DNA from: Gammaproteobacteria bacterium
Lineage (GTDB): Bacteria; Pseudomonadota; Gammaproteobacteria; JAJPIJ01
Reading direction: 5' to 3'
DNA length: 64,000 nucleotides
Assembly (NCBI GenBank): GCA_022071965.1
Contig: JAJVIQ010000019.1
Location: forward strand, 136,793 to 200,792
Below are positions 2,746-18,756 of the stretch, piece by piece. Position 1 is the first letter of the stretch; every line of letters begins with the position of its first letter. Position numbers and translations under genes: made by a program. The notes under the pieces were generated by a model. It saw only the letters and a list, made by a program, of their open reading frames with translations. It searched no databases and was not told the DNA's origin.

Positions 2746-2830
2746 AGTTTCCTCCGCCGTCGTGTGGACAGAGATCTCTTGCCGTGATGCCCGCAACCCC
2801 GGCATCCGGCGGGGGATCGGTACGGTGGTG

Positions 2831-2858
2831 TTGCCGCCTTTGGCCTTCCTTTATACTG
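2831..2858 (+). promoter_or_regulatory. candidate sigma70 promoter for tRNA-Leu (TTGCCG, 16-nt spacer, TATACT)
   Basis: TTGCCG at 2831-2836 and TATACT at 2853-2858, about 20 nt upstream of the tRNA 5' end. Found by eye only. Confidence 0.3.
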
Positions 2859-2877
2859 GCCGCCCTCCCGACATCGC

Positions 2878-2965
2878 GCCGAGATGGCGGAACCGGCAGA
2901 CGCAGCGGACTCAAAATCCGCCGGGGTAACCCCCCGTGAGGGTTCGACTCCCTCTCTCGGCACCA
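2878..2965 (+). tRNA. leuX-like: tRNA-Leu(CAA), class II with long variable arm, CCA encoded
   Basis: GCCGAGATGGCGGAACCGGCAGACGCAGCGGACTCAAAATCCGCC...GGTTCGACTCCCTCTCTCGGCACCA. The acceptor stem GCCGAGA pairs with TCTCGGC, and the anticodon loop CUCAAAA gives anticodon CAA. It closely resembles E. coli leuX. Confidence 0.9.
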
Positions 2966-2966
2966 A
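2953..2966. repeat. attL-like copy of 14-bp direct repeat TCTCTCGGCACCAA (tRNA-Leu 3' end)
   Basis: Exact 14-mer shared with 10763..10776. This copy is the 3' end of the tRNA. Confidence 0.55.
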
Positions 2967-3157
2967 GTCCCCGTCCCCACGCCGCTCCAGCCGTCTCAGT
3001 CCGTCTACGTATCTAGCTGGAACTCAAGGTGTTTTTCGCGGTCTTACGCTCTACGCGTCCAAAATCGTCTCCATGAATCTCGTGTTTCGTGGGGGCATTT
3101 TTGGGGGCACCTGCCCCGCGAAATGGGGGCACATTTTTGCTGGGAGTCGAGTCCGAA

Positions 3158-4030
3158 ATGCCGTTGACAGTAGCCGCGATTAACCACGCCAGACCACGTG
3201 AGAAGGTCTACAAGCTCGCAGATGGTGGAGGCCTGTATCTTGAGGTCCATCCAACGGGCGCACGCTACTGGCGCTTGAAGTATCGCCACGCGAACAAAGA
3301 GCGTCGACTAGCAATTGGCGTATATCCCGATGTAACGCTCGCCGAGGCACGTACGGCGCGAGACAGTGCGCGCAAGCTCATCAAGAGCGGAAATGACCCG
3401 GTCGCGGTGAAGCGCGAGGTGCGCCGCAAAACCGAGTGCGAGGCGGCCAACACGTTCGAAATCATCGCCCGCGAATGGGTCGAGCACCAACGCGCACGCT
3501 GGACACCTGACCACGCAAGCACCGTCCTCCGGACCCTTGAGGCCAACGTGTTCCCAACCTTGGGGGCAAAGCCAATCACCAACATCACGGCGCCCGAACT
3601 GCTGGCGGCCATCCGCTCGGTTGAACGCCGCGATGCGCTGGAGGTTGCCTCCCGTGTGGCTCAGCGCTGCGGCGCGGTGTTCCGTTTCGCAATAGCGACG
3701 GGACCTACAACCCCGCTGCAGACCTTCGTGGCGCATTGAAGACAAGGAAGGTTACCCACCACCCCGCGCTCATGGCCAAGGACCTGCCGGAGTTCCTGGA
3801 TAACCTGGCTGCTTACGATGGCGATGAGCAGACTAAGAACGCCTTGAAACTCCTGATGCTAACCTTCGTCCGCACCGGTGAGCTTCGTGCCGCCGAGTGG
3901 AGCGAGTTCGACCTTGAGGGCGCGACTTGGCGCATACCGGCCGAGCGTATGAAGATGCGCGCACCTCACATCGTGCCGCTGTCGAAGCAGGCCGTCGAGG
4001 TCTTGAAGGCGCAGCAGGCACTTACCGGCC
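3158..4030 (+). pseudogene. int: P4-type tyrosine integrase, frameshifted and C-terminally truncated
   Basis: The N-terminus MPLTVAAINHARPREKVYKLADGGGLYLEVHPTGARYWRLKYR...RLAIGVYPDVTLAEARTARDSARKLIKSGNDP is the classic P4-integrase arm-binding domain. The reading frame breaks near 3712 at ...VFRFAIATG. The protein continues in the next frame (TYNPAADLRGALKTRKV...ELRAAEWSEFDLEGATWRIPAERMKMRAPHIVPLSKQAVEVL). Homology then ends near 4030, before the catalytic R..H..Y region. Confidence 0.75.
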
Positions 4031-4129
4031 TACCCGGGTTTCGAATTGTTGGCGGTTGGAAACCTGACAGCTCGGGAGCCTCCATAGCTAAACGCAAGAC
4101 GAATGGCACCAAGCCACCGCACCATCAAG

Positions 4130-4642
4130 ATGAACCGCGCCCCGGTGCTCACATTGTGGGCGGCCGTAGTGGCCGAGCGCTTGGGCTTCGACTGGGACGA
4201 GGCACTCACCATCGGTCGAGCCCTCGCCGGCCTGAACGCCTACGCCAAGGGCGTCTCCATCGGCCTGTTCCAGCCGACACCGAATGAGGTTAGGGAGCAG
4301 CGCCACAAGCTCCCCCCTGCGGAGACATTCACCGTCGACCTGCTGCATCGTGCGGTCCCGGCCGTCCATACCGGGCAGGGTGTGCGCGCACTGGACGAGG
4401 AGAAGCCCGCCGACCCGGCCAGCGTAAAGCAGTACCTGGAGGGCAAGTTCAAGGACGCCTTACCGGACGTGTACGAGGCTATGAAGACGCTTGCCGACGC
4501 CTACCCGCCAAGGAAACTCGCGGTAGAGGCCTACCACCTGTACGAGCAGTTCCGACCGGCCGTGCCCGCCGGGCAGCGTGGATGGGGTGCTGCCGGCGTA
4601 CTCGACCTCGACGCAATCAGAGGTCTGGCGCGGTTGGCCTAA
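4130..4642 (+). CDS. hypothetical protein (about 170 aa) of unknown function
   Basis: ORF 4103/4130..4642 (MNRAPVLTLWAAVVAERLGFDWDEALTIGRALAGLNAYAKGVSIG...). Its amino-acid composition looks coding. It is GC-rich, unlike the adjacent R-M genes. Its 3' end overlaps the res stop convergently by 26 bp. I recognise no family. Confidence 0.4.
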   Translation: MNRAPVLTLWAAVVAERLGFDWDEALTIGRALAGLNAYAKGVSIGLFQPTPNEVREQRHKLPPAETFTVDLLHRAVPAVHTGQGVRALDEEKPADPASVKQYLEGKFKDALPDVYEAMKTLADAYPPRKLAVEAYHLYEQFRPAVPAGQRGWGAAGVLDLDAIRGLARLA

Positions 4643-7600
4643 CATCCGCCGTTGCTGTCTCGGAGATCTGCGCCCCTACGTCACTTGCACGTTCCGCAAG
4701 CACGTACTGCCAGTAGCCGTAGGTTCCATCAGCATTCACTGCATTGGCCCACCGATGCGCCGCCTGCGCTTTCACGTCTTTCAGCGGGTCATACCCCTTC
4801 GTTTCAAATATCACAAACCGGTTGGATGTACCCTGCAGCCGGATGATGAAGTCGGGTATGTAGTCATGTGCCTGACCATCATGGAGATAAGGAATGGCAA
4901 ACCCGAGGTTGGCGTTCTTTACGAATGCTGAGACGTTGTCGTGAGTATCTATTGCGACAATAGCAGCCTGTTCCAGGCCGGAGTCGGCAACCATGAGGTT
5001 TAAATGACTCTTTTCAACTTGAACCACATTCTTGCTGGTCCAGAAATCGACTTCCGACGTGGTGCCCGGCCCGCGGTGCTTTTCAAACGACGGCAATTCC
5101 GCCGCCTCCCCTTGCATAACGTCCGGTTTAATGGCGGCGGTCAGTCGCTCGATGATCCAACCATAATAGGGGGATAGAAAGGCATCGAAGATGCTCGCGG
5201 GAGACAATGGCTTAACTCGCTCACGTAAATAACGGTCAACAATCTTCGCGATCTGCGGAAAAAGGGCGTGAGCTGGCGCTTCGCAGGAGGGTTGGGCGCA
5301 ATATTCTCGCGTCAGATCGCGCGCCATCTCAAACACCAGTGCCTGTAGGCGCTGGCCCGATCGGTAGGGATTGAGGTTCACGCTGACGATCTTTCCGGGG
5401 CCAAGCAACGAGTAGCGACCTTTGTTGCTTGGCACCCCGGCCTTCATTTCAACTTGTGGCGGGATTCTTACCGGATCCAGATCCAACGTTGCCACAGAGT
5501 TCCAATCAACGACAATACGATTAAGGATTTTTTGCCTGTATCCCATTACGCGAGGAAATTGAATTTCAAACTGCTTTTTCTGCGGAAGTGCATGGACGTG
5601 GAATCGCTTAGCGCGCGGTTGAGTAGGCGCACCCTGATTGGCCTTGAACGGAATGACCTCAAACGGCACTCCAAATATCTTCGCAACTTCCTCGCTGAGT
5701 AGCCCCGTGGTCTCGTCAATTTCGTAACTAGAACGCCGTAGCCCGCGACCCACCACCTGTTCGCACAGCAACTGCGACATGAATGGTCGCAGTCCGACGA
5801 TGTGAGTGACTGTGTTGCAGTCCCACCCTTCCGTCAGCATGCCGACGCTGACGATGCAGCGTATATCCCGACCCGGCGGGTGCGACGGGCGGCCGAGTTC
5901 TTTTGCCAGATCCTCGAAGCCATCGGGGTAAATTGGCCGCCCCGACCGATCGTTTGGCCAATTTACTTTGCCCACGGTGTCAAGCGTCAGCCGCATCCAA
6001 CGCATCTCGTCTGACTTCGCTTCATCGCTGTCTGTCTCGTGCACAACTTTGGTATCGACGCGAATTGTATGCGTCAACACGTCAGTGTTGCGTAGTTGCT
6101 CCAGCCGCGCCGACGCGATACCGGTTGGCGGTTTATCCTCTGCGAGCCACTCGTAGACTACCTTCGCGATTCGGGTGTTCTTGCAGACCAGAATAAACAC
6201 CGGCGGTCTTGGATCGTCAGTATTCCGGAGCCATTCCTTACGGGTCTGCTCCCACAACCCCCCCAACATGACTATCGGTGTGTATGCATACTGCAAGATT
6301 GCATCAGGTCTTGGATTGGCGCGCCGTCCACCACGCTGAGCAGCCGTCAGTTGAGGCAAAATCCAATGCCAGATGTTGAAGTACCCAGGAATCTCCTTGC
6401 CTGCCGTATCTCGCACCGCCAATTGCGGGATTTTCACCAGTCCCGACTCAATCGCGTCCGTCAACCCGAAATCGCTCACCACCCAAGGGAAGGTGCGATT
6501 GGTGTCCTGTCCGACCCGTCCGAGGTAATAGGGTGTCGCCGATAGATCCACACAGAAATTGATTCCTCGCAGCTTGTGAATACGGTCCAACCCGTCAATC
6601 CAGACAGTAGCTTCCTTGAAGAATTCGTCGATTTCCTCTTCATCGAATAAATCTTCCTCGCCCTCATCTGGCTCCGGTTTGCGGATGCGGTAGGCGTGAT
6701 GCGCCTCATCATTCAGCACGAGGATGTTTTTCTTTCCCCCAACCTCGCGCCCGAGTATTCGGTGAACGAGGGCCGTGTCGCTTTCAACGTACTTGCGCGA
6801 TTCGATGATTACTTTCTTCAGATTGCCGTCTATGTCGCACTCTTCCTCGATAATCTCAATCATTCCTGCATTAACCTGCCGCCGTAAATCCTCCAACGTC
6901 AGGTAGCGCGTGCCACGTGCCGTCGTCGACTTTTCTCCGATGGCGATCTTTTCCTTCACCCGTACCGGCTTGCCTGCCTTGGCAACCTTGGCGCTTGTCC
7001 CGCCAACTTGCACGGACTTCGGCTCGAATACGTGCCAGTTTGTGACTAGCACGCGCCCCTGCGTCATGAGCGGCATAAGGTGCTCAGGAATAAGGTCGCG
7101 GGTGCGGTAAAGACTCGCCTCGCCCGCCTCGGGATTCAACTCCGCCAAGCGGTTGCGGATGGTGACGTTGGGACAGACCACCAGCACCACATCGGAGAAC
7201 CGCCCGTCACTGCGATTGTTGAGCTTGTTAAGTATGCTCCACACGACCAACATGCCCATGACGGTCGTCTTGCCACTGCCAGTTGCCATCTTGCAGGCGT
7301 AGCGACGGAAGGCGCGATAGCCCTCGGCTCGGCGTTCCTCACTCATTTCATCCAGTGGCACATCGATACCTTGCAGGAAGTCCGACCGCGCCTCGGTGAG
7401 GAAAATAATCGTCTCCGCGGCTTCAAGCTGCGCGAAAAACAAACGATGCTTGCGTCCGTCGCGTCTCCAGTATTGAAGCAATTCTAATGAGGTGCGACTG
7501 ACACCGGGCCACTGCTGATCTCGCCACTCGCTGATCTGTTTTCGGACCTGATTTACCAACGTTAGATCTTGCCACTGCCCGCGCGCCTCATGTTCGCCAG

Positions 7601-7757
7601 CGTTGGATGTCCCCCGAGGTTCGCGATAGAAGTAACCGGCCGGACGGCGGCCTTTCCGCTCCTCTGGTGGTTCGCCTTCTGATATATACCAATATCGCGC
7701 CGGCTCCTCGTAGGGGCAGTTAAGGATTGGCTGCGGGACCTCGTAAGCCTCAGGCAC
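4617..7757 (-). CDS. res: Type III restriction enzyme Res subunit (SF2 helicase with C-terminal PD-(D/E)xK nuclease)
   Basis: 1046 aa. Walker A is CKMATGSGKTT and the DEAH box is LNDEAHHA. Helicase motif VI-like is QVVGRGLRR. The C-terminal YIPDFIIRL...FVIFETKG is a nuclease motif. It starts 2 bp after the mod stop. The region has visibly lower GC than its flanks. Confidence 0.85.
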   Translation of the reverse strand: MPEAYEVPQPILNCPYEEPARYWYISEGEPPEERKGRRPAGYFYREPRGTSNAGEHEARGQWQDLTLVNQVRKQISEWRDQQWPGVSRTSLELLQYWRRDGRKHRLFFAQLEAAETIIFLTEARSDFLQGIDVPLDEMSEERRAEGYRAFRRYACKMATGSGKTTVMGMLVVWSILNKLNNRSDGRFSDVVLVVCPNVTIRNRLAELNPEAGEASLYRTRDLIPEHLMPLMTQGRVLVTNWHVFEPKSVQVGGTSAKVAKAGKPVRVKEKIAIGEKSTTARGTRYLTLEDLRRQVNAGMIEIIEEECDIDGNLKKVIIESRKYVESDTALVHRILGREVGGKKNILVLNDEAHHAYRIRKPEPDEGEEDLFDEEEIDEFFKEATVWIDGLDRIHKLRGINFCVDLSATPYYLGRVGQDTNRTFPWVVSDFGLTDAIESGLVKIPQLAVRDTAGKEIPGYFNIWHWILPQLTAAQRGGRRANPRPDAILQYAYTPIVMLGGLWEQTRKEWLRNTDDPRPPVFILVCKNTRIAKVVYEWLAEDKPPTGIASARLEQLRNTDVLTHTIRVDTKVVHETDSDEAKSDEMRWMRLTLDTVGKVNWPNDRSGRPIYPDGFEDLAKELGRPSHPPGRDIRCIVSVGMLTEGWDCNTVTHIVGLRPFMSQLLCEQVVGRGLRRSSYEIDETTGLLSEEVAKIFGVPFEVIPFKANQGAPTQPRAKRFHVHALPQKKQFEIQFPRVMGYRQKILNRIVVDWNSVATLDLDPVRIPPQVEMKAGVPSNKGRYSLLGPGKIVSVNLNPYRSGQRLQALVFEMARDLTREYCAQPSCEAPAHALFPQIAKIVDRYLRERVKPLSPASIFDAFLSPYYGWIIERLTAAIKPDVMQGEAAELPSFEKHRGPGTTSEVDFWTSKNVVQVEKSHLNLMVADSGLEQAAIVAIDTHDNVSAFVKNANLGFAIPYLHDGQAHDYIPDFIIRLQGTSNRFVIFETKGYDPLKDVKAQAAHRWANAVNADGTYGYWQYVLAERASDVGAQISETATADVRPTAPDL

Positions 7758-7759
7758 GT

Positions 7760-10537
7760 CTACCGAGCCTCCTTCAGCGACTTCACGACCATTAACTCAT
7801 TGCCGCGGTCGTCGATGACTTTTACCGCCACTTGACCATGCTCGCCAGCTTCGAACGGTGCACTGACACTGCCGGCGAGATGTTCCCACACCGAGTCTTG
7901 GAACTCCCCTTTAAGCGCCCTCTTGAGGGAATCCCAAGCGCCTGTGCGGGGGAAAAATGCCTGGCAGACGTGAAAGCACAGGCCGTTGTAATCGGTGTCG
8001 AGGAACCAGGCCGGCACATCGTCACCTTTTCGCTGGTCCACCTCCATCGTCACGGGATCGAAAACATCCAGACCAAGCAATTTGACGGCATAGCACAATG
8101 GCTCATCCGCGACAGTCTTAACCTTGCTCACCTTGACCTCGGGAAGTCCACAGACGCTAAAGATCTGGCTGGAACGCATGTTCTTGAGCAAATCACCCAT
8201 GAGCAAATCGGGCGTTGCTTGCACGTACGTCGCGGGCACACCTACCGCCGCCTCGCACTTCTCGATCAGTTTTCGTGCGTCAGGCTGAATCGCAAAGCCG
8301 ATTACGTACAAGTAATCATAATGCTTGGCATGTGCCTCACGCGCCGCTTCGTAAACCAGTTTCTCGCTGACGGCACCACCCTCTGGTCCGAATACGATGG
8401 CAACAGGACGGCCGGATAAAGGCAACGTGCTGCTGTTCTCCTCGTCTGCGACCTGCAATGCCTCGTCAATCGATATCGGGCCTGGTATGTGCGCGACCTC
8501 AACAATCGCCTCAGCAGAAAGCGTGAGGGTCTTCGCTGGTGGGCGGACATTGCGCAGGGTGGCCGACTTACCGCCATCGATATGTAGCGCCGGCGAGCGG
8601 CGTAGCACTTCAAGCATGCGGTCGACGAAGCTGCCGTGCGACTCCGCCACGGTGGCGACGCCGGAATCCTCGACGCCGTCTCCCTCCCAGTCTATAGGCG
8701 TGGGGATGGTCGCCTCGACACAGAAGGGACCGGTGACTCTCGTGATTTTGTCATTAGTCTCTGGTCGGTCCACCAGCACCTCTTCAGCGGGCGGTTCGTC
8801 ATTGGCGATACTCCCGAGCGTAATATGCGGCACGATACCGCCGACCTCCTCGCCCTTGCTGTTCTGTCTCCGCTTGTAGACGAAACCGCCGGCAGGGCCG
8901 CGGTCGCACTCCTTCAGTTCGTAGTACGGGAACGTGGCAGTGAGCAGCCGTTGCCTCGCCAAAGCCAGTGGGACTCGGCTTGTATCAACGGTTATCCAGC
9001 GCCGCCCCCACTGTTCGGCGACATAAGCTGTGGTGCCGCTACCGCAAGTCGGATCCACGACAAGATCACCTGGGTCTGTGGTCATCAGCATGCAGCGTTG
9101 TATGACCTTGGCCGTTGTCTGAACCACATATGACTGCTCTTCCGTGAAGCTCCCGGCCCCGCTATCGGTCCATACGTTGTTCAAATACGCCACCGGGAAA
9201 TCATCGAGAAAAGATGCCGCCCGAACGTTATCCCCTACGGGGAAAACACGTCCAAGTTCCGCAAGACGCTGGAGACCACTCATGGTGAACCTCCAATGTT
9301 TGTTGTGCGGAACTCGGTATGAGCGACCCTTAAACTCGAAGACTTCGTCCGAGTTCTTGCTCGCGCCCTGAGCATATAGGGCCATACTCTGAAACAGGCG
9401 AATCCCCTTCGGTACCTTGTCGGGGTGCTGTTGCTCACCCATAGAAACTGTCTTGACGTCGCCAGCCGAATCAAAGTAGTACCGGAATGCTGCCAATCCT
9501 GCAGGCGCCTGATCCCGAGGAAAGAACAACTGCCGATATTTCATCCGCGACGGGTCTTTGGAGTACCAAAGAAGGTAGTCGCACACTGTCGGTAGACGTC
9601 CTGTATCTAACCCTCCCGTTTTCTTGAATGAAATTTGGCTCACGAACGATTCCGCTCCGAAAATTTCATCCATTACCTCGCGAACATGATGCACATTCTC
9701 ATCTGAGATCTGCACGAATATGCTGCCGGACGGTGCAAGTAAGTCGCGGGAGAGCAATATCCGGTCGCGCAAATAGGTGAGATAGGAGTGCAGGCCCAAC
9801 TCCCAGGTGTCGCGGTAGGCCTTAACCATCTCCGGCTCGCGCGTCATGTCCTCGTCGTCATTGTGGGCTACGTCGCGCCTGCGCACGAATGGTTGGAAAT
9901 TACTCCCGAATTTCACCCCGTAGGGCGGGTCCATATATATCATCTGCACCTGCCCTCCCATGCCCTCATAGTGCAGAAGCGAGTTCATCGCTGCGAGCGA
10001 GTCCCCGAGCACCATACGGTTTGTCCAGCCGTTCATGTGCTCGTAGGCGCGGAGCACCTGTTCGTGAATCGGATGCTGCCGGTCCCCGAACAGGTCAAAC
10101 AGGTCGATCTGCCTATCGCGCTTGTGGCCTTTCAGCGTTTCGAGGATGGCGCGGGTGCTTAGTCGTTCATGGATGAACAGCGGCAATGTCGGCACGTCGA
10201 ATGACAGGCGCTCGGCCTTGCCAGCCCAGTTAAGGAAGGGCTTGCTGAAAGCGCGAAGTTTCTCGGCGGCGGCCTTGGCCTCGCCCAAATCCTTGGCTTC
10301 AAGAATCTGGCGAATCAGCGTCTCACCTTGCTCCCTCGTCGGGTTCTGTCCATCCCAATCCAACGCCGGAGACAGTGAAGAATCGAATCGGTATGTTTTT
10401 GGTGGCTTCTTCTTCCTGAACTGTGCCTGTGTGCCGACCTCTGGGCGCAGTAGCAATGAGGCGGTAGGGTGACTGTAATTTTCAGTTTGTTTTCCTGGTT
10501 GGCCAGTAGCTTTCTCTCGGCCCTTTTTCCTCGGCAT
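7760..10537 (-). CDS. mod: Type III R-M Mod subunit (beta-class N6-adenine/N4-cytosine DNA methyltransferase), unusually long
   Basis: Motif IV IYMDPPYGVKFGSNF precedes motif I VVDPTCGSGTTAYVAEQWGRRWITVD, a circular permutation typical of Type III Mod. There are about 400 aa after motif I. The ORF is open to 10612 (alternative starts at 10612 and 10570). The ATG at 10537 (MPRKKGREK) follows a G-rich RBS. Confidence 0.85.
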   Translation of the reverse strand: MPRKKGREKATGQPGKQTENYSHPTASLLLRPEVGTQAQFRKKKPPKTYRFDSSLSPALDWDGQNPTREQGETLIRQILEAKDLGEAKAAAEKLRAFSKPFLNWAGKAERLSFDVPTLPLFIHERLSTRAILETLKGHKRDRQIDLFDLFGDRQHPIHEQVLRAYEHMNGWTNRMVLGDSLAAMNSLLHYEGMGGQVQMIYMDPPYGVKFGSNFQPFVRRRDVAHNDDEDMTREPEMVKAYRDTWELGLHSYLTYLRDRILLSRDLLAPSGSIFVQISDENVHHVREVMDEIFGAESFVSQISFKKTGGLDTGRLPTVCDYLLWYSKDPSRMKYRQLFFPRDQAPAGLAAFRYYFDSAGDVKTVSMGEQQHPDKVPKGIRLFQSMALYAQGASKNSDEVFEFKGRSYRVPHNKHWRFTMSGLQRLAELGRVFPVGDNVRAASFLDDFPVAYLNNVWTDSGAGSFTEEQSYVVQTTAKVIQRCMLMTTDPGDLVVDPTCGSGTTAYVAEQWGRRWITVDTSRVPLALARQRLLTATFPYYELKECDRGPAGGFVYKRRQNSKGEEVGGIVPHITLGSIANDEPPAEEVLVDRPETNDKITRVTGPFCVEATIPTPIDWEGDGVEDSGVATVAESHGSFVDRMLEVLRRSPALHIDGGKSATLRNVRPPAKTLTLSAEAIVEVAHIPGPISIDEALQVADEENSSTLPLSGRPVAIVFGPEGGAVSEKLVYEAAREAHAKHYDYLYVIGFAIQPDARKLIEKCEAAVGVPATYVQATPDLLMGDLLKNMRSSQIFSVCGLPEVKVSKVKTVADEPLCYAVKLLGLDVFDPVTMEVDQRKGDDVPAWFLDTDYNGLCFHVCQAFFPRTGAWDSLKRALKGEFQDSVWEHLAGSVSAPFEAGEHGQVAVKVIDDRGNELMVVKSLKEAR

Positions 10538-10762
10538 AACTACCCCCCAACTGAAGATTTCCTTGTTCATCACCGACGGTCCCCAGTCGGTTGCCAATTG
10601 TTCACGACACATAGAGTACAGGTGACTGCCTCAGATTCCCAAGCTTGGCAGCGAAGTCAATCGCGCCACTTAGGCTTCTGCTGCAACTAGATGCCGACGG
10701 CCACTGTACCGCTCGCCCATCCCGCCCCAAGCTGGTTCAATTTCCGCCCAACGGCGGTTGAG

Positions 10763-10776
10763 TCTCTCGGCACCAA
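10763..10776. repeat. attR-like copy of 14-bp direct repeat TCTCTCGGCACCAA
   Basis: Exact match to the tRNA-Leu 3' end (2953..2966), in the intergenic region just beyond the mod start. A given 14-mer is expected about 5e-4 times by chance in 64 kb. Confidence 0.55.
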
Positions 10777-10996
10777 TTGCTAGCCGGATCGGGTATCATC
10801 ATACTGCGCCGATTTGAAGTGACCAGCTTGCGGGCGCGTAACAAATACAGCTAACGCGGGCAGGAACTCATGAACCCGCCTTGGCTGCCAAGCTGACGCG
10901 GGTCTTCTATTGCACCGCATAGTTAGATAGACAACTTGCCATTGCCACGGTCTATCCGGCCCTCCGTGCCGCGGATGCGCGGCATGATTTCCCCGA

Positions 10997-12042
10997 TCAT
11001 GCGTCGGTGTCCTCTGGCACCAGCATCCACACGCGCTTCAGCGGCAGTTCGGCCTGTATCTCCGCCGGCAGTCGCTCATAAGTCCGGTAAATCGCCTCGA
11101 CGAGATCGCGGCTCTCCCATAACCGCACCGTGAAATGGCCCTGCCGAGCCTCACTCAGCACTGACCCTTTGAAACCGCCCCAACACACGAGCAAGCCTTG
11201 CTCCGCCTTGAAGGTCTGCATCGAGCCCTGCAACGTCCGGTAAATCGTGACGTCAGCGGGACTGTTTTGCGACTTCACCTGCACGCAGAGTCGCGGGACG
11301 TCAAGGCCGAGGGGACCGCGTCCACCTAGGATGTCGACACCTCCATCCGCCCCGGGAGGCGACACTTTTGTTACCCAACCGTCGGCCTGTAGCACCGCAT
11401 CCACGAGGCTCGCTAACGCGTGACCCGCAAACCGTGTCTGGATATGTGCCACGATTTGGTCATGGGCGAGCTGCGCGAGATCGGGAACTTCCTCGGGTTC
11501 GAGTGTGGGTGGGGCCGCGCCCGCCTTTTTCGGCTTGCCGAGCGCTACCGAGGGGCCGGGATCCGGCTTGCCGGCCAGCACCGCTGCGACACGCCGCTCC
11601 GCGTCGTTGCGTGAGATGTTGCAGACCGTCATGAAGGCGCCGAACGAGTGCAGCAGGTCTTGCTCGAACGCGGTGCGCGGCACGTCCGGCCGCAACCATT
11701 CCACCGCTCGGGTATGGCGCAAATCGCTGCCGACCTTCTGGTATCGGTAAGGCCCTTTCACACGCCCGATGGCAATCTGTGATGTCAACTTGCGTGGTAG
11801 CACGACGAGGTCGCCCTCGTTCATCGCAATCACAAATGCCCCGTGATATTGCCGACAGCGCGCGGCTTGGCACCCGGCAGGCTGGCTTCGACGATCTTGA
11901 AGATGGCATCGTAATCCTTCGCCCCCTCCAGTGATGGGATGTGCCGGAAACCGATAATGGCGAGATTACCTTCTAGAGCGGCCTCCTCGTCCTCCCCCAG
12001 CCTGCCCGCTCGCGTCAGATAGACCTTTGGTACCTCACTCAT
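10997..12042 (-). pseudogene. mrr-like: Mrr-like (Type IV) restriction endonuclease, split by a frameshift
   Basis: The upstream 70-aa ORF (MSEVPKVYLTRAGRLGEDEEAALEGNLAIIGF...AKPRAVGNITGHL) matches the N-terminus of Mrr-cat family restriction enzymes. The downstream 278-aa ORF continues the same family (MNEGDLVVLP...) and carries the Mrr catalytic core GGVDILG...LCVQVKSQ. The two ORFs are joined by an ATGA start/stop overlap at 11830-11833. Confidence 0.65.
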
Positions 12043-12169
12043 TGCATTCCTCCGGAAGTTTCAAATAGCAAAGCATAAATAGGTACCAGTTGAAGGAACT
12101 CGGGTGGCGCTTGGAGAGCGGATCGTTTGCGAAGACCAAACCGTGCGCAAGGAGGCTACCCGATGAAAG

Positions 12170-12420
12170 TAAGTGTACTGGAGATGCCGTGGCCCGTCTG
12201 GCGGCAACTGCAGCGCGTGGTGAAGAAGTCGCGAGACGTCGACCATGTATGATGTGCGCCGAGGTTGCTGAGGCTGCACGTACTGGGCGGTAATGTGAGC
12301 GCGGCCGCGCAGGTGTGTGGCGCCTCACGCGGGGCACTGCGGCATTGCCCAACGCTCTACGAGAGCGGCGGTAAGCAGCCCTCGCACCGAAGTGGCGTGG
12401 GCTCAAAAATATTAGCTCAG
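12170..12420 (+). pseudogene. IS630/IS481-like transposase N-terminal HTH remnant
   Basis: Frame-broken peptide ELPWPVWRQLQRVVKKSRDV ... RLLRLHVLGGNVSAAAQVCGASRGALRHCPTLYESGG resembles the N-terminal HTH of IS630/IS481-family transposases. No DDE domain follows. Confidence 0.35.
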
Positions 12421-12425
12421 AGATC

Positions 12426-13112
12426 ATGCGCTACGCCATAGCCACAGGCCGTCGCAAGGACGACCCGGCCGCGGCTTTGAAAGGAGCATTCAAGACCCGA
12501 ACAGCTGAGAATCACCCCCACCTCGAACGCGCCGACCTGGGGCCATTCCTGCGCAAACTCCATGACTACGCTGGTCGGCACGAAACACGGATCGCCGTAC
12601 AACTGCTGATGCTGACTGCCGTTCGGACTGGCGAGCTGCGGGCCGCCAAGTGGACCGAGATAGATTTCAGCGCCAAAGAATGGAGCATCCCGGCGGATCG
12701 GATGAAGATGCGGTCACCGCACGTCGTTCCGCTCTCCCGGCAGGCCATTCGATTGCTGGAAGAACTGAAGACCTACACCGGCTACAGCGAGTACCTGTTC
12801 CCCAACCATGGCAAGCACCCGCACATGAGCGAGAACACGGTCAACAAGGCACTGCACGGCCTCGGTTACAAGGGCGAGCTCGTGGGCCACGGCTTTCGCG
12901 CCACATTCAGCACAATCGCCAATGAATCCGGGAAGTTCAATCCGGATGCCATCGAGCGGTCGCTGGCGCATAAGGACAAGAACCCTGTTCGGGACATATA
13001 CAACCGCGCCAAGTACCTGCCGGAGCGACGGAAGCTGATGCAGTGGTGGGCAGACGATCTCGATGCTGCCCAGAATGGAGCGAAGATTGTGCGCCTCACA
13101 CGACGTGATTAG
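12426..13112 (+). pseudogene. int: P4-type integrase fragment (catalytic domain only, N-terminal half missing)
   Basis: Begins MRYAIATGRRKDDPAAALKGAFKTR..., corresponding to the middle of P4-type integrases. It includes HVVPLSRQAIRLL, HGFRATFST and a C-terminal RD-containing tail. There is no arm-binding domain. Confidence 0.75.
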
Positions 13113-13208
13113 CCGCACAAACGCGGTTTCGGCCTCTTTGACTATTGCCAGACGAGATCCTAAACTTCTACCCGACTACTACCCCGATGGTTTCGACTGT
13201 CGGGCGCG

Positions 13209-13235
13209 GGGCCCCTTCGGGGGCCCTAGCTTTTT
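13209..13235 (+). terminator. Rho-independent terminator (7-bp GC stem, UUCG tetraloop, T5)
   Basis: GGGCCCC-TTCG-GGGGCCC followed by TAGCTTTTT, located between the integrase fragment and the NYN gene. Confidence 0.55.
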
Positions 13236-13250
13236 CTGAGGGCATGGACG

Positions 13251-13889
13251 ATGAATAAGGCGCCCCTCCGCACCTACGTCTATATCGACGGGTTCAATTT
13301 TTACTACGGGCAAGTCAAAGGCACCCCCTGGAAGTGGCTCGATCCCGTCGCCCTGTTTCGGAAAGTCCTCCGCCCTCAAAACGACATTCGCAAGATCAAG
13401 TATTTCACCGCACGAGTCGAACCCACACCCTACGACCCTGACGCGAACGTTCGACAGGACACATACCTCAGGGCACTGACGGCTCACTGCCCAAACGTAG
13501 AGCTACATTTTGGTCACTTTCTCCGTCATCAGATTTTCATGGAGAACGCCAATCCACCGCCTGGCAAGGTCTGCGTTTGGAAGAACGAAGAGAAGGGCTC
13601 CGACGTAAACCTCGCGCTGCACCTGCTGAATGATGCCTGGAGGGATGAGTACGACTGCGCCGTCGTCGTCTCGAATGACTCCGATCTTGCTGAGGCACTT
13701 AGAATGGTTCGCGAACAGAACGGCAAAGTCATCGGTGTGGTTACTCCAGGCGCACCGAAACGGAGAACATCATGCCAACTCGCCAAGTATGCTCACTTCA
13801 TCAGCCCGATAAGAAAGTGGGCTCTGCAGGCCAGTCAGCTACCTTCCCCGATTCCTGGAACGACGATCAGGAAGCCGGATACCTGGTAG
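13251..13889 (+). CDS. NYN-domain (PIN-like) ribonuclease family protein
   Basis: 212 aa. Motifs YIDGFNFYYG, GSDVNLALHL and VVSNDSDL are typical of the NYN/LabA-like nuclease fold. A GAGGG RBS precedes the ATG. Confidence 0.75.
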   Translation: MNKAPLRTYVYIDGFNFYYGQVKGTPWKWLDPVALFRKVLRPQNDIRKIKYFTARVEPTPYDPDANVRQDTYLRALTAHCPNVELHFGHFLRHQIFMENANPPPGKVCVWKNEEKGSDVNLALHLLNDAWRDEYDCAVVVSNDSDLAEALRMVREQNGKVIGVVTPGAPKRRTSCQLAKYAHFISPIRKWALQASQLPSPIPGTTIRKPDTW

Positions 13890-13948
13890 CTTCACAGTTG
13901 CCTCGGTGCAGAGCCTGGGGGTGCGGCCTTGCTGCTCGTGCGCATGCG

Positions 13949-14037
13949 GATTCCGGTCGATGCCGGGCAGTGATTCCGGTCCATGCCGGCACGGATTCCG
14001 GCTGATGCCGGCAGCGATTCCGGCGCATGCCGGCAGG
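13949..14037. repeat. four tandem 22-bp direct repeats (GATTCCGGYNNATGCCGGSASN), consistent with IS21-family multiple terminal repeats
   Basis: Repeats at 13949-13970, 13972-13993, 13994-14015 and 14016-14037, lying 60 bp upstream of the istA fragment. No spacers, so not CRISPR. Confidence 0.7.
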
Positions 14038-14099
14038 TTCGGTGGGACGGGTAACCAACGCTACCGTAGCGCCTTTTCCAACGTGGAGAGGGGGCGACG

Positions 14100-14669
14100 G
14101 TGGCGCAAACGAGGTTACCCATGCGAAAGATCCGCGAGGTATTGCGACTCAGGTATGAGCACGGCCTGAAGGACGGCCAGATCGCCGCGGCCATTGGCTC
14201 GGCGCGCTCCACGGTGCAAGAGTGCGTGCGCCGGGCACAGCAGGCAGGGTTGAGCTGGCCGCTGCCCGAGGGGTTGGACGAGCTGGCGCTGCAGTCGCTG
14301 TTGTATCGGCGCGAGGTGCCGCTGTCGCGCACGCCGGCACCGGATTTCGCCAGGCTGCATGCCGAGCTCAAACGTCCCGGGGTGACACGGCTGCTGCTGC
14401 GGCAGGAGTACAAGGCCGAGCGCCCCGATGGCTGGCAGTACAGCGTGTTCTGCGATCAGTACCGTCGCTGGCTGGCGCGTCAGGATGTGGTGCTGCGCCA
14501 GCAGCACGTGCCCGGCGAGAAGCTGTTCGTGGACTACGCCGGGCAGACGGTGGCGGTCATCGATCGGCACACCGGTGAGAGCCGCCCCGCGCAGATCTTC
14601 GTGGCCGTGCTCGGCGCCTCCAGCCACACCTATGCCACTTGTTCTTCGTGGACGGCGGGGCGGCAATGA
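14100..14669 (+). mobile_element. istA: IS21-family transposase IstA, N-terminal fragment (truncated)
   Basis: MRKIREVLRLRYEHGLKDGQIAAAIGSARSTVQECVRRAQQAGLSWPLPEGLDE... matches the IstA N-terminus. The ORF is interrupted after about 180 aa, where an IS5-family fragment begins on the opposite strand. Confidence 0.75.
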
Positions 14670-15105
14670 TGGTGGCATCGACGATCGTGCCGGTGCCGAT
14701 CTTGACCCCCTGCGCCTCCAGGTGACGATGCACCTGCTGGAACAGCTTCACGCCCAGGTTGTGCTCCTCCAGCAGATGGCGGAAGCGCAGCACCGTGGAT
14801 TCATCCGGCGCCGGCGCATCGGCCAGATCCACCCCGGCGAAGCGGCGCATCGAGGCCGAATCGTACAGCGCCTCTTCCACGCCCGGATCCGAGAGATTGA
14901 ACCATTGCTGCAGGAAGTACACCCGCAGCATCATCTCCAGTTCCTTGGGCGGGCGACCGTCGCCGGCCTTCGGGTATTTCGGCGCAATCAGCCTGCACAG
15001 CTCGGCCCATGGCACGATGCGCTCCATCTCGGCCAGAAACTTCGCCCGCTTCGTCGTCCTGGAGAACTTCTCAAAGCCCGTGCCCAGGGTCAGCTGTTTG
15101 CTCAA
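14557..15105 (-). mobile_element. IS5-family (IS1182/IS5-like) transposase N-terminal fragment
   Basis: MSKQLTLGTGFEKFSRTTKRAKFLAEMERIVPWAELCRLIAPKYPKAGDGRPPKELEMMLRVYFLQQWFNLSD is the hallmark IS5-family N-terminus. The DDE domain is missing. An imperfect inverted repeat at about 15140-15180 may be the IS end. Confidence 0.65.
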
Positions 15106-15251
15106 TGCCGTCTCCGATGTGTTTCGGTGTGCCTACCGATCAGATCGTGGACTTTTGCAGAGGTTCCTTAGACTGCTTCTAGGCAGAACCTCTTCTGGCC
15201 GCATCGATCAGCGGTAAGCAATTCCCGCAAGAAAGAGCGACAGATCGTGCC

Positions 15252-16028
15252 TTACCCTGCTTGCCTCAGGTTCGCGCCGAGGACATCGCTGACCAGTTCG
15301 CCCCCGCCTTCGCGAATGGCATCGTGCAAGATCACTCTTACTTCGCGTAGAAACTCCTCGGAGTGCGCGTCAAGAGCCGGTCCAGGCACAGGCGCGGAAT
15401 TCTCGTAAATCATGCGAATGACGCTAGCGCGGTCATAGGTGGACCCGCGTCCGCGATAGTCAAACGCTCTCATCCAGTCCCTGCGCGGGACGCGCAACAG
15501 CTTCTGTTCCACATAGCCGTGCAACCGAGCGAAAACAGCGCGCTGGACCTGGGACAGCGCGGCGTCGGCTTCCGGCTCGCTCGGCGCACGCGGCTGCCAG
15601 CGGATCGGCTTGTCGAGAAACTTAGTAATCGATTCCGACAGGCGCGCCACGAGATCCGCGACGGGCTTAAGATCCTTGTACTCGCCCTCATTGATGTCGA
15701 GCACCACGCGGCGGTTCATCGCCTTGACTTCTGCCCAATGCGCCTTGCGGACAGTGGACGATCCCGTAAACAGGATGGCGTTCCAGCGCGCATGAAACTC
15801 GGCAGCAGCCGCTTGGATGGCGAGAACGAGTCCAGCCGTATCGTAAACGGGACAGACTTCCGCAACGTCCGCCGGCATGATGGCGGCTTCGCAGAAATCC
15901 ATCAGCTTGAGCAACTCGCTTACGGGTCCGCGCTGCTTCTCTGTCAGGGGGCGGTTGAGGAAACCGAGCATGAAGCAGCGTTCATCAAGCCCGCGTTCAA
16001 TCGCCCGGCGGTGGTGCTCCGAGATCAT
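15252..16028 (-). CDS. hypothetical protein, 258 aa, unknown function
   Basis: The ORF has a balanced, coding-like composition (MISEHHRRAIERGLDERCFMLGFLNRPLTEKQRGPVSELLKLMDFCEAAIMP...). The opposite-strand ORF is Arg-rich junk. I recognise no family. Confidence 0.45.
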   Translation of the reverse strand: MISEHHRRAIERGLDERCFMLGFLNRPLTEKQRGPVSELLKLMDFCEAAIMPADVAEVCPVYDTAGLVLAIQAAAAEFHARWNAILFTGSSTVRKAHWAEVKAMNRRVVLDINEGEYKDLKPVADLVARLSESITKFLDKPIRWQPRAPSEPEADAALSQVQRAVFARLHGYVEQKLLRVPRRDWMRAFDYRGRGSTYDRASVIRMIYENSAPVPGPALDAHSEEFLREVRVILHDAIREGGGELVSDVLGANLRQAG

Positions 16029-16200
16029 GCGCTACGCCATTGCCACCGGCCGGCGTCGCGACGACCCTGCAGCCGCTCTCAAGGGAGCGTTCCGGACACG
16101 CGCGGCCACACACCTCCCCGCCCTGTCACGCACCGAACTCGGTCCCTTCCTGCGGGCGCTGGTCGAATACCCCGGCCGTACCGTGCGGGTGGTAAAGACG
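16027..16200 (+). pseudogene. int: third P4-type integrase remnant (short internal fragment)
   Basis: MRYAIATGRRRDDPAAALKGAFRTRAATHLPALSRTELGPFLRALVEY... begins at the same residue as the fragment at 12426. Homology is lost after about 55 aa. Confidence 0.55.
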
Positions 16201-16311: not shown

Positions 16312-18756
16312 TCAAAACGTGGCGCACAAGGTCCGCCACATCACCTCGGCAGGCAGCGGTTCGCTGAACAGATAGCCCTGTGCTATATCGCAGTGGTTGG
16401 CACGCAGGAAATCGCGCTGCAGTTCGTTTTCGACGCCTTCGGCCACCACCTCCAATCGTAGCTGCCGCGCCATTGCCAGGATGGTCTGGACGATGACCAC
16501 GCTGTTGCCGTCCTCGGGCACGTCCTTGATAAAGGAACGATCGATCTTCAGCCTATCTAACGGCAGATGCCTCAGCATGCTTAGAGAGGAATATCCGGTC
16601 CCGAAGTCGTCGATGGCGATCGAAATCCCTAGCTTGCGTAACTCGCGTAGATGACTGGAATCCTGGCCCAATGCTTGCAGCGTACTTTCGGTGATCTCCA
16701 GTTCAAGCAGGTACGGTGGAAGTCCGCTGTCCTGAAGGGCCTCGATGACAATCCGATCGAAGCTACGATTGATGAGCTGTCGTGCCGACACATTGACTGC
16801 CAGTCGCGTCGGAGGCAGGCCATCTCGATGCCACTGCGCTACATCGCGACAGGCCTGGTCGAGCACAAAACGTCCGATCGGATCGATGAGCCCGTTCTCC
16901 TCTGCGATGGGAATGAACCTCACGGGCGGGATGAACCCACCTTGCGGCTGCGGCCAGCGCACCAGAGCCTCGACCGCGGCTACGCGCGCTGTGGCGAACT
17001 CCACCTGCGGCTGATAGTAAACGCGGAACTCCTTCTGTCTTAGCCCTCTGCGGATCCCCTGTTCAAGGGTCACGCGCTCCTTGGCTCGATGTGACATCTC
17101 CGGGGTGTAGAAACAGTATTGATTTCGCCCGATCGATTTTGCCGTATACATCGCGGTATCCGCCGCGCTTAACAGGCCTGCAATCGTCTCGCCGTCATTC
17201 GGATAAACCGACAGGCCCATGCTGGCAGTGATTGTCACTGTTTCGTTGCCCACGTCCATAATCTCCGAGATCGCCTCCTGCAGCTTGCGAGCGATCTTGG
17301 CAACATCCTCGGCGTGCGAAATGGAGTCGAGCAGGATCACGAACTCGTCGCCACCGAGTCTCGCTGCCGTATCGCCGCGCCGCAGGGCCGACTTGACCCT
17401 AACCGTTACCGTCTTAAGGACGGCGTCCCCAGCGGCGTGCCCGAGCGTATCGTTGATGAACTTGAACTCATCCAGATCCAGATAGATGAGACCGAATATC
17501 CCCTTCGCACGAGCCGCGCGCTGAATCGTCTGCTCAAGCCTATCGCTCAACAGCAAGCGGTTCGGCAGACCGGTCAGGGCATCGTGATGAACGAGGAAGT
17601 TGAGTTGCTCCTCTGTCTGGCGGATGGCGCTGATATCGGAGAACGCGATTATGTAGCGCAATACCGCCCCCTGCTTGTCGCGAACAACGGCGGTGCTGCA
17701 CCAGATCGGAAACACGCGATCCCCCTTGTGTCGGCAGAGCATTTCGCCAGACCAGCTGCTCTTCGTGTCGGTGATGACCAGCGGCGACACCCGATCGTCC
17801 GGTGAACGCGTGTGCAGAAGGTCGTGCATTCTTTGTCCGACCACCTCGGTCGCGGTGTATCCCGTGATCCGACTGAAGGCGGGATTGATGGAGAGAATCT
17901 GCTGTGCGGCATCCAGCACGAGAACGCCCTCCGCGATGCCATCATATATGGCTGCCGCCTGTCGCAACTGCTCCTGCGCACTCATGAGCGCGGTAATGTC
18001 ACGAATGACGCCGATCAGCCGCAGAGCGTTCCCGCGATGCTCGAAGCGTACGGACGCCTGAACCTCCAGGTAATGGAGTTCTCTGCCATGCATTCTCCGG
18101 TATACGCGACGCACCGCATGGCCCGCAGCCTTCGCGGCCTCCAATAACTTTCCAACCGGCTCACGATCCTCCGGGTGTAGATCCGCGATGAAGCACTCGC
18201 CGGCAACAGCCTGGACGTACAAAAATCCTCTCTCGGGGATACCGCCTCCGTCATGCACCAAATTGCCGGTTGCAGGATCCCATTCCCACACGCTCATCTC
18301 GGCCGCCGACAGAGCCAGCCGCAGACGCTCTTCGCTCCGCGCACGCGCCGATTCAGCTGCATGTCGCGCCAGGGCCATTTGCAACGTGCCGTGCAATTCA
18401 CGCACCGTACAAGGCTTCACGAGATAGCCGAAAGGGGAGGTGGTCTTGGCCCGCTCAATCGTCTCATTTTCGGCGTAGGCAGTGAGGAAGATTACCGGAG
18501 TGCGGAAGTTCTTCTGGATGTAGTCGGCAGTGTCGATGCCGTCGAGCATGCCCTCCAGATGGATGTCCATGAGTACCAGGTCCGGGTTCCCATTTTCGAT
18601 CTGATGGATCGCCTGCTCGCCGGTAGCCGCCATTCCACTCACAAAATAGCCCAGAGTCTCGAGTTGCTGCTTCAGGTCCAGCGCGACGATACGCTCGTCC
18701 TCCACCAGCAATATGTTCGTCCGCGCATTCATCGATTTTCTCCGCTGATGGGACAC
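16312..18756 (-). CDS. response regulator with REC, PAS, GGDEF and EAL domains (c-di-GMP turnover)
   Basis: 814 aa. The N-terminal REC domain is LLVEDERIVALD...LMDIHLEG. The GGDEF motif RLGGDEFVILL is intact. EAL motifs EALVRW and DDFGTGYSS are present. Confidence 0.85.
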   Translation of the reverse strand: MSHQRRKSMNARTNILLVEDERIVALDLKQQLETLGYFVSGMAATGEQAIHQIENGNPDLVLMDIHLEGMLDGIDTADYIQKNFRTPVIFLTAYAENETIERAKTTSPFGYLVKPCTVRELHGTLQMALARHAAESARARSEERLRLALSAAEMSVWEWDPATGNLVHDGGGIPERGFLYVQAVAGECFIADLHPEDREPVGKLLEAAKAAGHAVRRVYRRMHGRELHYLEVQASVRFEHRGNALRLIGVIRDITALMSAQEQLRQAAAIYDGIAEGVLVLDAAQQILSINPAFSRITGYTATEVVGQRMHDLLHTRSPDDRVSPLVITDTKSSWSGEMLCRHKGDRVFPIWCSTAVVRDKQGAVLRYIIAFSDISAIRQTEEQLNFLVHHDALTGLPNRLLLSDRLEQTIQRAARAKGIFGLIYLDLDEFKFINDTLGHAAGDAVLKTVTVRVKSALRRGDTAARLGGDEFVILLDSISHAEDVAKIARKLQEAISEIMDVGNETVTITASMGLSVYPNDGETIAGLLSAADTAMYTAKSIGRNQYCFYTPEMSHRAKERVTLEQGIRRGLRQKEFRVYYQPQVEFATARVAAVEALVRWPQPQGGFIPPVRFIPIAEENGLIDPIGRFVLDQACRDVAQWHRDGLPPTRLAVNVSARQLINRSFDRIVIEALQDSGLPPYLLELEITESTLQALGQDSSHLRELRKLGISIAIDDFGTGYSSLSMLRHLPLDRLKIDRSFIKDVPEDGNSVVIVQTILAMARQLRLEVVAEGVENELQRDFLRANHCDIAQGYLFSEPLPAEVMWRTLCATF

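Follow-up and report, generated by a model that had tools for sequence, protein, structure and literature searches.

A probable decaying tandem array of defence islands at a tRNA-Leu(CAA) gene, with three disrupted P4-type integrases

The 64-kb stretch of DNA analysed here (the window) contains a tRNA-Leu(CAA) gene followed by three remnants of P4-type integrase genes, which are divergent, share one orientation and have a foreign base composition. Integrase decay grows with distance from the tRNA. We consider it probable that defence islands have accumulated in tandem at this locus and are now decaying, and that the loose clustering of the integrase lesions is probably due to chance. Each island would once have brought its own P4-type tyrosine integrase, and new islands would have inserted at the tRNA, pushing the older ones downstream. 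The newest integrase, int1, would have been disabled by a 7-nt deletion together with the loss of its 3' end, and the older int2 and int3 would have lost the att site, the arm sites and their 5' halves through illegitimate deletions across island boundaries, one joining an internally cut IS630-like gene to codon 169 of int2 and the other joining a 5'-cut neighbouring gene to codon 165 of int3. We infer both the order of acquisition and deletion, as opposed to some other rearrangement, as the origin of the junctions. The piling up and decay of islands at a tRNA gene is already known and ordinary biology, of which this locus, with its defence islands, is a clear example. The features are collected in Table 1.

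Table 1. Features of the composite island and its tRNA target, in window coordinates.
Feature	Position	Strand	Basis or remark
tRNA-Leu(CAA), integration target (attL side)	2878..2965	+	ARAGORN
Three copies of TGGGGGCA(C/T), between tRNA and int1	3087..3140	+	read from sequence
int1 5' segment, codons 1-180, Arm-DNA-bind_3 and Phage_int_M	3158..3702	+	Pfam, tblastn
int1 second segment (TYNPAADLRGALK...QQALTG)	3703..4041	+	-1 frame relative to first segment
Cargo of newest island	4103..10612	mostly -	Pfam, PADLOC
179-aa ORF without family match	4103-4642	+	
Type III restriction subunit	4617-7757	-	Pfam ResIII, PADLOC REase_III
Type III methyltransferase	7760-10612	-	Pfam N6_N4_Mtase, PADLOC MTase_III 1.3e-144
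TCTCTCGGCACCAA, 14-nt direct repeat of tRNA-Leu 3' terminus (= 2953-2966)	10763..10776	+	blastn-short, exact
Mrr-like candidate defence gene (PADLOC PDC-S02), two ORFs, 10997-11833 and 11830-12042	10997..12042	-	
IS630-like transposase N-terminal fragment (winged helix-turn-helix), in-frame TGA	12164..12414	+	
int2, codons 169-398 of P4-type integrase	12415..13112	+	blastn to L001/L002, tblastn, Pfam
NYN-domain gene, defence candidate HEC-09 match	13251..13889	+	Pfam NYN; PADLOC HEC-09 3.8e-45
IS debris	13947..15105	mixed	repeat search, Pfam
22-nt tandem repeats	13947-14035		repeat search, families D3 and D5
IS21 istA-like 5' fragment (putative)	14100-14669	+	read from sequence
IS5-type DUF772 transposase fragment	14557-15105	-	Pfam DUF772 1.3e-23
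5'-truncated gene, ~400-aa family without assigned function	15252..16007	-	BLASTP
int3, codons 165-223 only	16002..16179	+	blastn, tblastn, BLASTP of neighbour
Low-GC tail of composite island	16312..21646	-	composition profile, Pfam
Response-regulator/PAS/GGDEF/EAL gene	16312-18756	-	Pfam
PAS histidine kinase	18729-20654	-	Pfam

From about 3.0 to 21.6 kb the window has a GC content of 55-63%, against about 68% in the flanks. The last 30 nt of its tRNA-Leu recur without mismatch as the opening 30 nt of two database contigs, L001 and L002 (blastn, 30/30), which carry relatives of int2 and int3 adjoining this identical tRNA-Leu 3' end and which provided our full-length reference integrases (that of L001 being P0001, 399 aa). 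The start of int1 lies 193 nt past the tRNA, placing the gene directly 3' of its target. The short repeats in the intervening DNA have similar counterparts 5' of the integrase in L001 and, judging from this sequence, may be arm-type integrase binding sites. A single exact copy of the tRNA 3' terminus (E 0.014 over the whole window with blastn-short) lies in the intergenic DNA that separates the methyltransferase gene from the Mrr-like one, and is probably the attR of island 1, marking the end of the newest island. For the older elements no tRNA 3'-end repeat, and hence no attR of islands 2 and 3, was found at up to 3 mismatches, and the boundaries of these two islands are presumed ones. The far boundary of the composite island appears to lie at 21646, as suggested by GC content and by the end of contig L146 at this very position. 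The earlier note's proposal that islands had been acquired serially at the tRNA, each leaving an older integrase behind, is supported by the divergent, co-oriented remnants, by their progressive decay away from the tRNA, by the tRNA-Leu end beside the relatives of int2 and int3, and by this tRNA repeat.

The genes carried between the integrase remnants match restriction-modification and defence-candidate families in PADLOC. The Mrr-like gene, for instance, recovers PDLC04815 in two parts (profile positions 72-344 with an E-value of 3e-113, positions 2-65 with 1.8e-10) as well as Pfam Mrr_cat. The signalling genes of the tail, where the GC content is 58-61% versus about 68% in the flanks, are possibly the cargo of the oldest island. 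Exact look-ups of the flanking peroxiredoxin and of the truncated 258-aa ORF beside int3 (the latter via P0121) led to no contig other than those matching the window at 100%, which come from the same population, and an exact look-up of the GGDEF-EAL protein returned no match; none of the three recovered an independent strain.

In E. coli, phage P4 inserts itself at leuX, a tRNA-Leu gene. The integrases of the window have the same domain order as those of P4 and CP4-type elements (DUF4102, Arm-DNA-bind_3), namely Arm-DNA-bind_3, Phage_int_M and Phage_integrase, and int likewise stands immediately 3' of tRNA-Leu(CAA), reading away from it, with repeats in between. In contrast to those elements, all three copies here are broken, and the islands carry restriction-modification and defence candidates rather than satellite-phage functions.

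According to tblastn, the window contains three pieces of P4-type integrase and no more, each of them on the + strand. The 5' segment of int1 aligns to P0001 aa 1-180 and yields Pfam matches to Arm-DNA-bind_3 (1.4e-27) and Phage_int_M (1.8e-30). It stops at the GG of the glycine codon in AIATG, and the N-terminal frame is lost immediately past ...FRFAIATG, where the earlier note had placed the loss. The second segment covers aa 183-295 (tblastn), with its 3' end cut at about codon 295, and matches only positions 3-82 of the 172 in Pfam Phage_integrase. Where the two meet, at 3702/3703 after codon 180, 7 nt have been deleted, namely the Arg-Ala codons plus one base: the closest relative of int1, P0166 (82% identity), reads AIATGRATYNPAGDLRGALKTRKVTHHPALMAKDLPEF at this site, and the G-to-P spacing is 5 aa in 94 of 94 relatives. 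The two halves of int1 match P0166 equally well and flank a gap of exactly R-A plus 1 nt. Given that both are equally close to P0166, int1 is not a chimera, and its lesion is a simple 7-nt deletion.

The remaining two copies are truncated from the 5' side and lack the Arm-DNA-bind_3 and central domains. Homology of int2 begins at 12415, corresponding to L001 nt 692 in codon 169, where it meets unrelated DNA at 12414/12415; it aligns to P0001 aa 169-398 with 72% identity (tblastn). Its catalytic domain is intact (Pfam Phage_integrase 2.9e-25), and an open frame of 228 codons, running from an internal methionine at 12426, retains in translation the catalytic arginine (TGELR), the histidine and arginine of HGFR, the histidine of LAH and the tyrosine. 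Homology of int3 begins at 16002, corresponding to L001 nt 678 in codon 165, and unrelated DNA abuts it at both ends; its 59 codons include none of the catalytic residues, and it shares 95% amino-acid and 87% nucleotide identity with P0001/L001. Upstream of 12415 and of 16002, identity to the relatives falls to random level. As all three copies are disrupted, none is expected to be active in recombination.

On the other side of both junctions the partner is itself a truncated gene. The IS630-like pseudogene, whose family assignment is tentative (Pfam HTH_29, E 3e-4, under the curated cut-off), is cut after about 84 codons at its meeting point with int2. The gene abutting int3 lacks its 5' part, with query aa 8-251 aligning to aa 165-408 of the 408-aa P0123 at 73% identity (BLASTP). 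It is overlapped by int3 by up to 6 nt (GCCCGG, 16002-16007), and the ORF as called reaches 16028, its first codons being antisense to int3. Such truncation of both partners is a mark of illegitimate deletion.

The earlier note had described three integrase remnants sharing one break point. The three remnants are real and independent, but their junctions fall at codons 165, 169 and 180. The 5' junctions of int2 and int3 lie 13 nt apart, and the int1 deletion, a lesion of another kind, lies 34-48 nt downstream of them, so that all three lesions span 48 nt of a gene of ~1.2 kb. That the break points seem to be shared comes largely from the way the open frames read. The ATGs at 12426 and 16027 do open ORFs reading MRYAIATGRR, as reported before, and correspond to the internal Met173 of the full-length integrase; because this methionine lies within the conserved block W-C-S-E-I-M-R-Y-A-I-A-T-G-R, the ORFs of the two older fragments begin alike. 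Integrase homology does not end at these apparent starts, since it runs a further 11 nt upstream of the ATG in int2 and 25 nt in int3, an extension that the earlier note had named as grounds for rejecting its reading. Likewise, the shared short motif, CTCNGAGATCATGCGCTACGCC, is ordinary integrase coding sequence (C-S-E-I-M-R-Y-A) from the part of the gene that is best conserved in this integrase clade; GAGATCATGCGCTACGCC has exactly 2 occurrences in the window against 0.22 expected. ORFs that seem to start at one conserved motif may thus hide different real junctions, which calls for caution in similar cases.

The earlier note judged a coincidence of break points unlikely to arise by chance. 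In a naive Monte Carlo simulation with a uniform model, two 5' ends fall within 13 nt of each other with a probability of 0.022 and three lesions fall within 50 nt with a probability of 0.005; when any three of the five lesions present are allowed to fall within 50 nt, the naive figure rises to 0.046. These naive values, about 0.005-0.05, speak against the preferred reading. The break points are close without being identical, and chance most likely explains what proximity the real junctions have (13 nt between two of them, 48 nt across all three).

The clustering of the three lesions could alternatively reflect a real recombination or deletion hot spot, as the earlier note had proposed, situated at the conserved block of codons ~165-181 in this integrase clade, where recombination between a resident island and an incoming one would tend to end within a near-identical stretch of ~45 nt. 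All three lesions lie near the block, which is the most recognisable part of the gene and, among tRNA-Leu(CAA)-specific integrases, its most conserved DNA: nucleotide identity between L001 and L002 peaks at 93% over codons 166-180, compared with 67% overall. Moreover, an unrelated metagenomic remnant, L060, is cut at the same codon (~165), and another remnant, L058, starts near codons 175-187, although both loci were chosen for their short ORFs and are to that extent biased cases. If true, a hot spot would point to a specific way in which an arriving island disables the one already in place, and would supply a sequence signature with which to date successive acquisitions. Against it, the junctions are found at three different codons (165, 169 and 180) and are not of one kind, and the partners are unrelated, internally cut genes, whereas homologous exchange would yield chimeric full-length integrases. 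No unusual DNA fold was detected at the junction region (z from -0.46 to +0.62), and a search for inverted or direct repeats at the junction site gave none. We see no indication of a special recombination hot spot, which we regard as unlikely; the more specific proposal, that the W-C-S-E-I-M-R-Y-A-I-A-T-G-R block is a preferred end point of deletion or replacement that leaves old islands with a catalytic-domain-only stub, is likewise unlikely.

Integrase lesions outside the window, which are scattered, also argue against a hot spot. On database contigs, the integrase is frameshifted at aa 86/87 in L002 and at aa ~150 in L142, interrupted by an IS at aa ~131 in L059, truncated at aa ~165 in L060 and broken at aa ~175-187 in L058. 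Remnants on plasmids start at ~146 (flanked by IS2), ~250, 291 and 314, or end at 81, 153 and 302. Together these lesions range from codon ~81 to codon ~314 (5 database loci and about 8 plasmid remnant classes), in a sample that is small and partly biased. The best 80 metagenome matches to an alignment of 30 integrases were all full-length, and the metagenome search contributed one extra fragment, L078 (aa 357-387). A search of the genome collection with GAGATYATGCGCTAYGCCAT returned 52 loci in unrelated phyla, with no integrase encoded at any of them. Four short database proteins were considered as independent short integrases and set aside, P0100 owing to an IS insertion at aa ~131, P0017 owing to a frameshift at aa ~150, and P0103 and P0111 owing to contig edges.

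Selection might also account for the similar 5' ends, if catalytic-domain remnants behind Met173 were kept as useful, for example by interfering with incoming related islands. The open 228-codon frame of int2, with its retained catalytic residues, is consistent with this, as are several database ORFs of 220-236 aa that begin near the same MRYAIATG motif. However, DNA of ~60% GC commonly contains open frames this long, and most of the short database integrase ORFs proved to begin where a gene caller had placed a start 3' of some other lesion, or to be contig edges. In addition, int3 has the same kind of 5' end yet, with its 59 codons, cannot function, and selection would not require the junctions to fall as close as 4 codons. 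We therefore think this explanation improbable.

The SSV-type archaeal integrase gene is split by integration because its attP lies inside int, and in that system, as here, a partial integrase gene is found beside an integrated element. A comparable site-specific event, using an attP within int or a secondary att-like site, would account for the closeness of the junctions, which is its sole support, and we judge it very improbable. Neither junction has a tRNA or att-like sequence; in the int genes the best match to the tRNA 3' end does not exceed what shuffled sequence gives, and it is located away from the break. Unlike the SSV-type arrangement, the break has no att core, the 64-kb window holds no complementary N-terminal int fragments, and what adjoins int at the junctions is in each case a truncated gene unrelated to it.

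It is scarcely credible that int2 and int3 arose from a single, already truncated ancestor through segmental duplication, even though they share an identical 18-nt motif in the same orientation. The earlier note had named a simple recent duplication as a finding that would overturn its reading, and no such duplication is seen: the DNA of int2 and int3 is 73% identical over 139 nt, and their nearest full-length relatives differ, int3 being far closer to L001 (87%) than to int2, and int2 matching L002 at 77%. Their 5' ends are moreover 13 nt apart and the flanks unrelated.

The preferred reading, a tandem array of islands in decay, has counterparts in known elements; the grounding of prophages and the inactivation of their integrases have been reviewed (PMC6379469). 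In common with tandem accretion and grounding, the locus has divergent same-target integrases in one orientation downstream of a single tRNA, a tRNA-derived repeat separating the newest element from the rest, decay that increases with distance from the tRNA, and IS fragments at the boundaries; the IS21 assignment is a putative one, made from the sequence. It differs in that only one internal direct repeat is left and in that the 5' halves of the two older int genes were lost at points separated by 13 nt, nearer to each other than expected though not identical.

The defence islands beside tRNA-Leu(CAA) form a decaying tandem array, a phenomenon of an already known kind, with three independently damaged P4-type integrase genes (int1 to int3, numbered by distance from the tRNA). 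A tblastn search of the 64-kb window with the 399-residue full-length relative P0001 recovered exactly three integrase pieces, all on the forward strand, and their P4-type architecture is apparent from the Pfam domains Arm-DNA-bind_3 and Phage_int_M in int1 and the catalytic Phage_integrase domain in int2. int2 and int3 share only 73% identity across 139 nt and each is nearer a different full-length gene: int3 to that of contig L001, which encodes P0001 (87% identity), and int2 to that of contig L002 (77%). They are thus independent remnants, and the recent duplication that the earlier note had named as a refuting outcome of nucleotide alignment is ruled out. Both of these contigs begin with a 30-nt tRNA-Leu 3' end identical to that of the window, so all three integrases come from elements targeting this tRNA. 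No integrase fragment was detected by tblastn near the second tRNA gene of the window, tRNA-Lys(TTT).

Features of the integrase array and other elements of the window
Feature	Position	Strand	Remarks
tRNA-Leu(CAA)	2878-2965
Repeats upstream of int1	3087-3140		three copies of TGGGGGCA(C/T)
int1	3158-4041	+	aa 1-180, then aa ~183-295 in another frame (tblastn vs P0001)
179-aa ORF	4103-4642	+	between int1 cut end and type III restriction gene
Repeat of tRNA terminus	10763-10776		exact, 14 nt (TCTCTCGGCACCAA)
Mrr-like gene (PADLOC candidate PDC-S02)	10997-12042	-	two ORFs, profile positions 2-65 and 72-344
IS630-like helix-turn-helix pseudogene	12164-12414		junction 2, upstream partner of int2
int2	12415-13112	+	aa 169-398 (tblastn vs P0001)
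NYN-domain gene	13251-13889	+	directly after int2 stub
Tandem units	13947-14035		four to five copies of a 22-23-nt unit (CGGATTCCGGNNNATGCCGG)
Truncated gene at junction 3	15252-16028 (called ORF); 15252-16007 (homology)	-	5'-truncated member of ~400-aa family
int3	16002-16179	+	aa 165-223 (tblastn vs P0001)
GGDEF-EAL response regulator and PAS histidine kinase	16312-21646		GC 58-61%, flanks about 68%
tRNA-Lys(TTT)	49143-49218	-

The earlier note held that the three genes are broken at the same position. Its description of the reading frames is accurate: int1 loses frame after FRFAIATG, the ATGs at 12426 and 16027 open ORFs reading MRYAIATGRR, and the 18-mer GAGATCATGCGCTACGCC occurs exactly twice in the window (0.22 expected). 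However, the break points themselves do not coincide. In an alignment in register with L001 and L002, integrase homology reaches 11 nt (int2) and 25 nt (int3) upstream of these ATGs, starting at window 12415 in int2 (L001 nt 692) and 16002 in int3 (L001 nt 678), 13 nt apart in the L001 register, with random-level identity upstream of both starts; the int1 lesion is of another kind. Both ORFs open at what is, in the full-length protein, the internal Met173 (...RRWCSEIMRYAIATGRR...), and the shared 18-mer is ordinary integrase coding sequence. Nucleotide conservation between L001 and L002 peaks at codons 166-180 (93% vs 67% overall); hence the near identity of the initial 26 nt of int2 and int3, which does not extend into the remainder. 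The apparent coincidence is therefore three different lesions over 48 nt, beside or inside the block where the gene is most conserved.

In int1, AIATG is followed in the next frame by TYNPAADLRGALKTRKVTHHPALMAKDLPEF, whereas P0166, the relative closest to it (82% identity), has AIATGRATYNPAGDLRGALKTRKVTHHPALMAKDLPEF, and in 94 of 94 relatives the AIATG glycine is spaced five residues from the following proline. The P0166 reading and this constant spacing show that a 7-nt deletion at the 3702/3703 boundary has removed the Arg-Ala codons and one base. A chimeric origin of int1 was rejected because both halves are equally close to P0166. The gene is also cut at codon ~295 (4041).

At junctions 2 and 3 a cut integrase is fused to an unrelated, internally truncated gene, and these junctions accordingly match the product of illegitimate deletion; transposition, site-specific recombination or homologous exchange would be recognisable by signatures of their own. 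The reading frame of the IS630-like partner of int2 contains a stop, and this gene breaks off internally after about 84 codons. In the partner of int3, homology to the 408-residue protein P0123 begins at residue 165 of the latter, no higher than window nt 16007; the ORF as called opens with codons that are antisense of int3, and at most 6 nt (GCCCGG) are assignable to both genes. The ~400-aa family of this partner (P0122-P0134) has well-conserved members in metagenomes (identities of up to 77%) and yielded no Pfam or PADLOC match. The exact protein of the truncated partner itself (P0121) also occurs in a MAG at NCBI with the label "Gammaproteobacteria bacterium". The int1 N-terminal ORF with its frameshift (P0173, 99% identity) and the window-identical contigs L057, L146 and L147 (each 100%) came exclusively from publicly available Logan assemblies of sequencing runs. 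These carriers are the same population as the window, and hence give no information on junction age.

The earlier note further proposed a recombination hot spot within int. Under a uniform model, three lesions fall inside 50 nt with P = 0.005, two 5' ends lie within 13 nt of each other with P = 0.022, and, with all five observed lesions considered, any three fall inside 50 nt with P = 0.046; these values are suggestive at most, since the pattern was spotted after the fact via a conspicuous conserved motif. Against a hot spot, the junction region contains no inverted or direct repeat and no unusual single-strand DNA fold (z -0.46 to +0.62 for relatives and all three copies), and no att-core-like sequence in the int genes surpassed shuffled controls, the best matches lying away from the break. 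For those database matches in which a short integrase ORF lies on a long contig, we also mapped the lesions in the DNA: an IS insertion at aa ~131 (L059), frameshifts at aa ~150 (L142) and aa 86/87 (L002, also cut 3' by an IS), a true truncation at aa ~165 (L060) and a break near aa 175-187 (L058), with L143 and L144 representing contig edges only. Several short database ORFs "start" at the AIATG motif though their lesion is elsewhere, because the conserved (M/V/F)-R-Y-A provides the first start codon past it. Likewise, a tblastn survey of 72,556 plasmids recovered remnant classes starting at aa ~146 (abutting IS2), ~249-252, 291 and 314, and ending at aa 81, 153 and 302. Lesions thus occur at scattered points in the gene, and a hot spot is unsupported and improbable; the sample is small and partly selected, leaving room for a weak local preference.

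The L059 integrase (2506-4699) is P4-type, adjoins tRNA-Ala and is interrupted by an IS with a DDE_Tnp_1 transposase; its sample and one containing the window's organism share an SRA accession series. Separately, the 20-mer GAGATYATGCGCTAYGCCAT occurs in 52 genomes (L005-L056; many Acidimicrobiia, other Actinomycetota, Flavobacteriales), against a rough estimate of about 4 under uniform base composition. Since no integrase is encoded at any of these loci, the sequence may be part of another conserved gene.

The serial acquisition of islands at the tRNA suggested by the earlier note is supported. In the gap that separates the type III methyltransferase gene from its Mrr-like neighbour, the 14-nt tRNA-terminus repeat is most simply read as the attR of the newest island, whose contents are int1, the 179-aa ORF and the type III pair res and mod. 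Beyond it lie, in order, the split Mrr-like candidate; the IS630-like fragment and int2; the NYN-domain gene; IS21-like and IS5-like debris; the truncated ~400-aa-family gene and int3; and two signalling genes. GC is 55-63% over about 3.0-21.6 kb and about 68% to either side, and decay is greater farther from the tRNA. Together with the tRNA-targeting relatives, these features argue for serial acquisition followed by decay.

The repeats directly upstream of int1 resemble GGGGCAC-type repeats upstream of the L001 integrase (~140-185), the proteins being only about 52% identical, and those before the L002 integrase (~145-190) differ (GGGGTAAC); all look like putative arm-type integrase binding sites. 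The 179-aa ORF shares 26 nt with the 3' end of the type III restriction gene and has no Pfam or PADLOC match. The Mrr-like gene is probably frameshifted and inactive, and the match of the NYN-domain protein to HEC-09 (3.8e-45), a defence-candidate family, is full-length. The tandem units, just before an IS21 istA-like 5' fragment, may be multiple terminal repeats of an IS21-family end. Given their island-like low GC, the two signalling genes may have been brought in horizontally as cargo of the oldest element; the independent assembly contig L146 stops at 21646, the point where GC climbs again.
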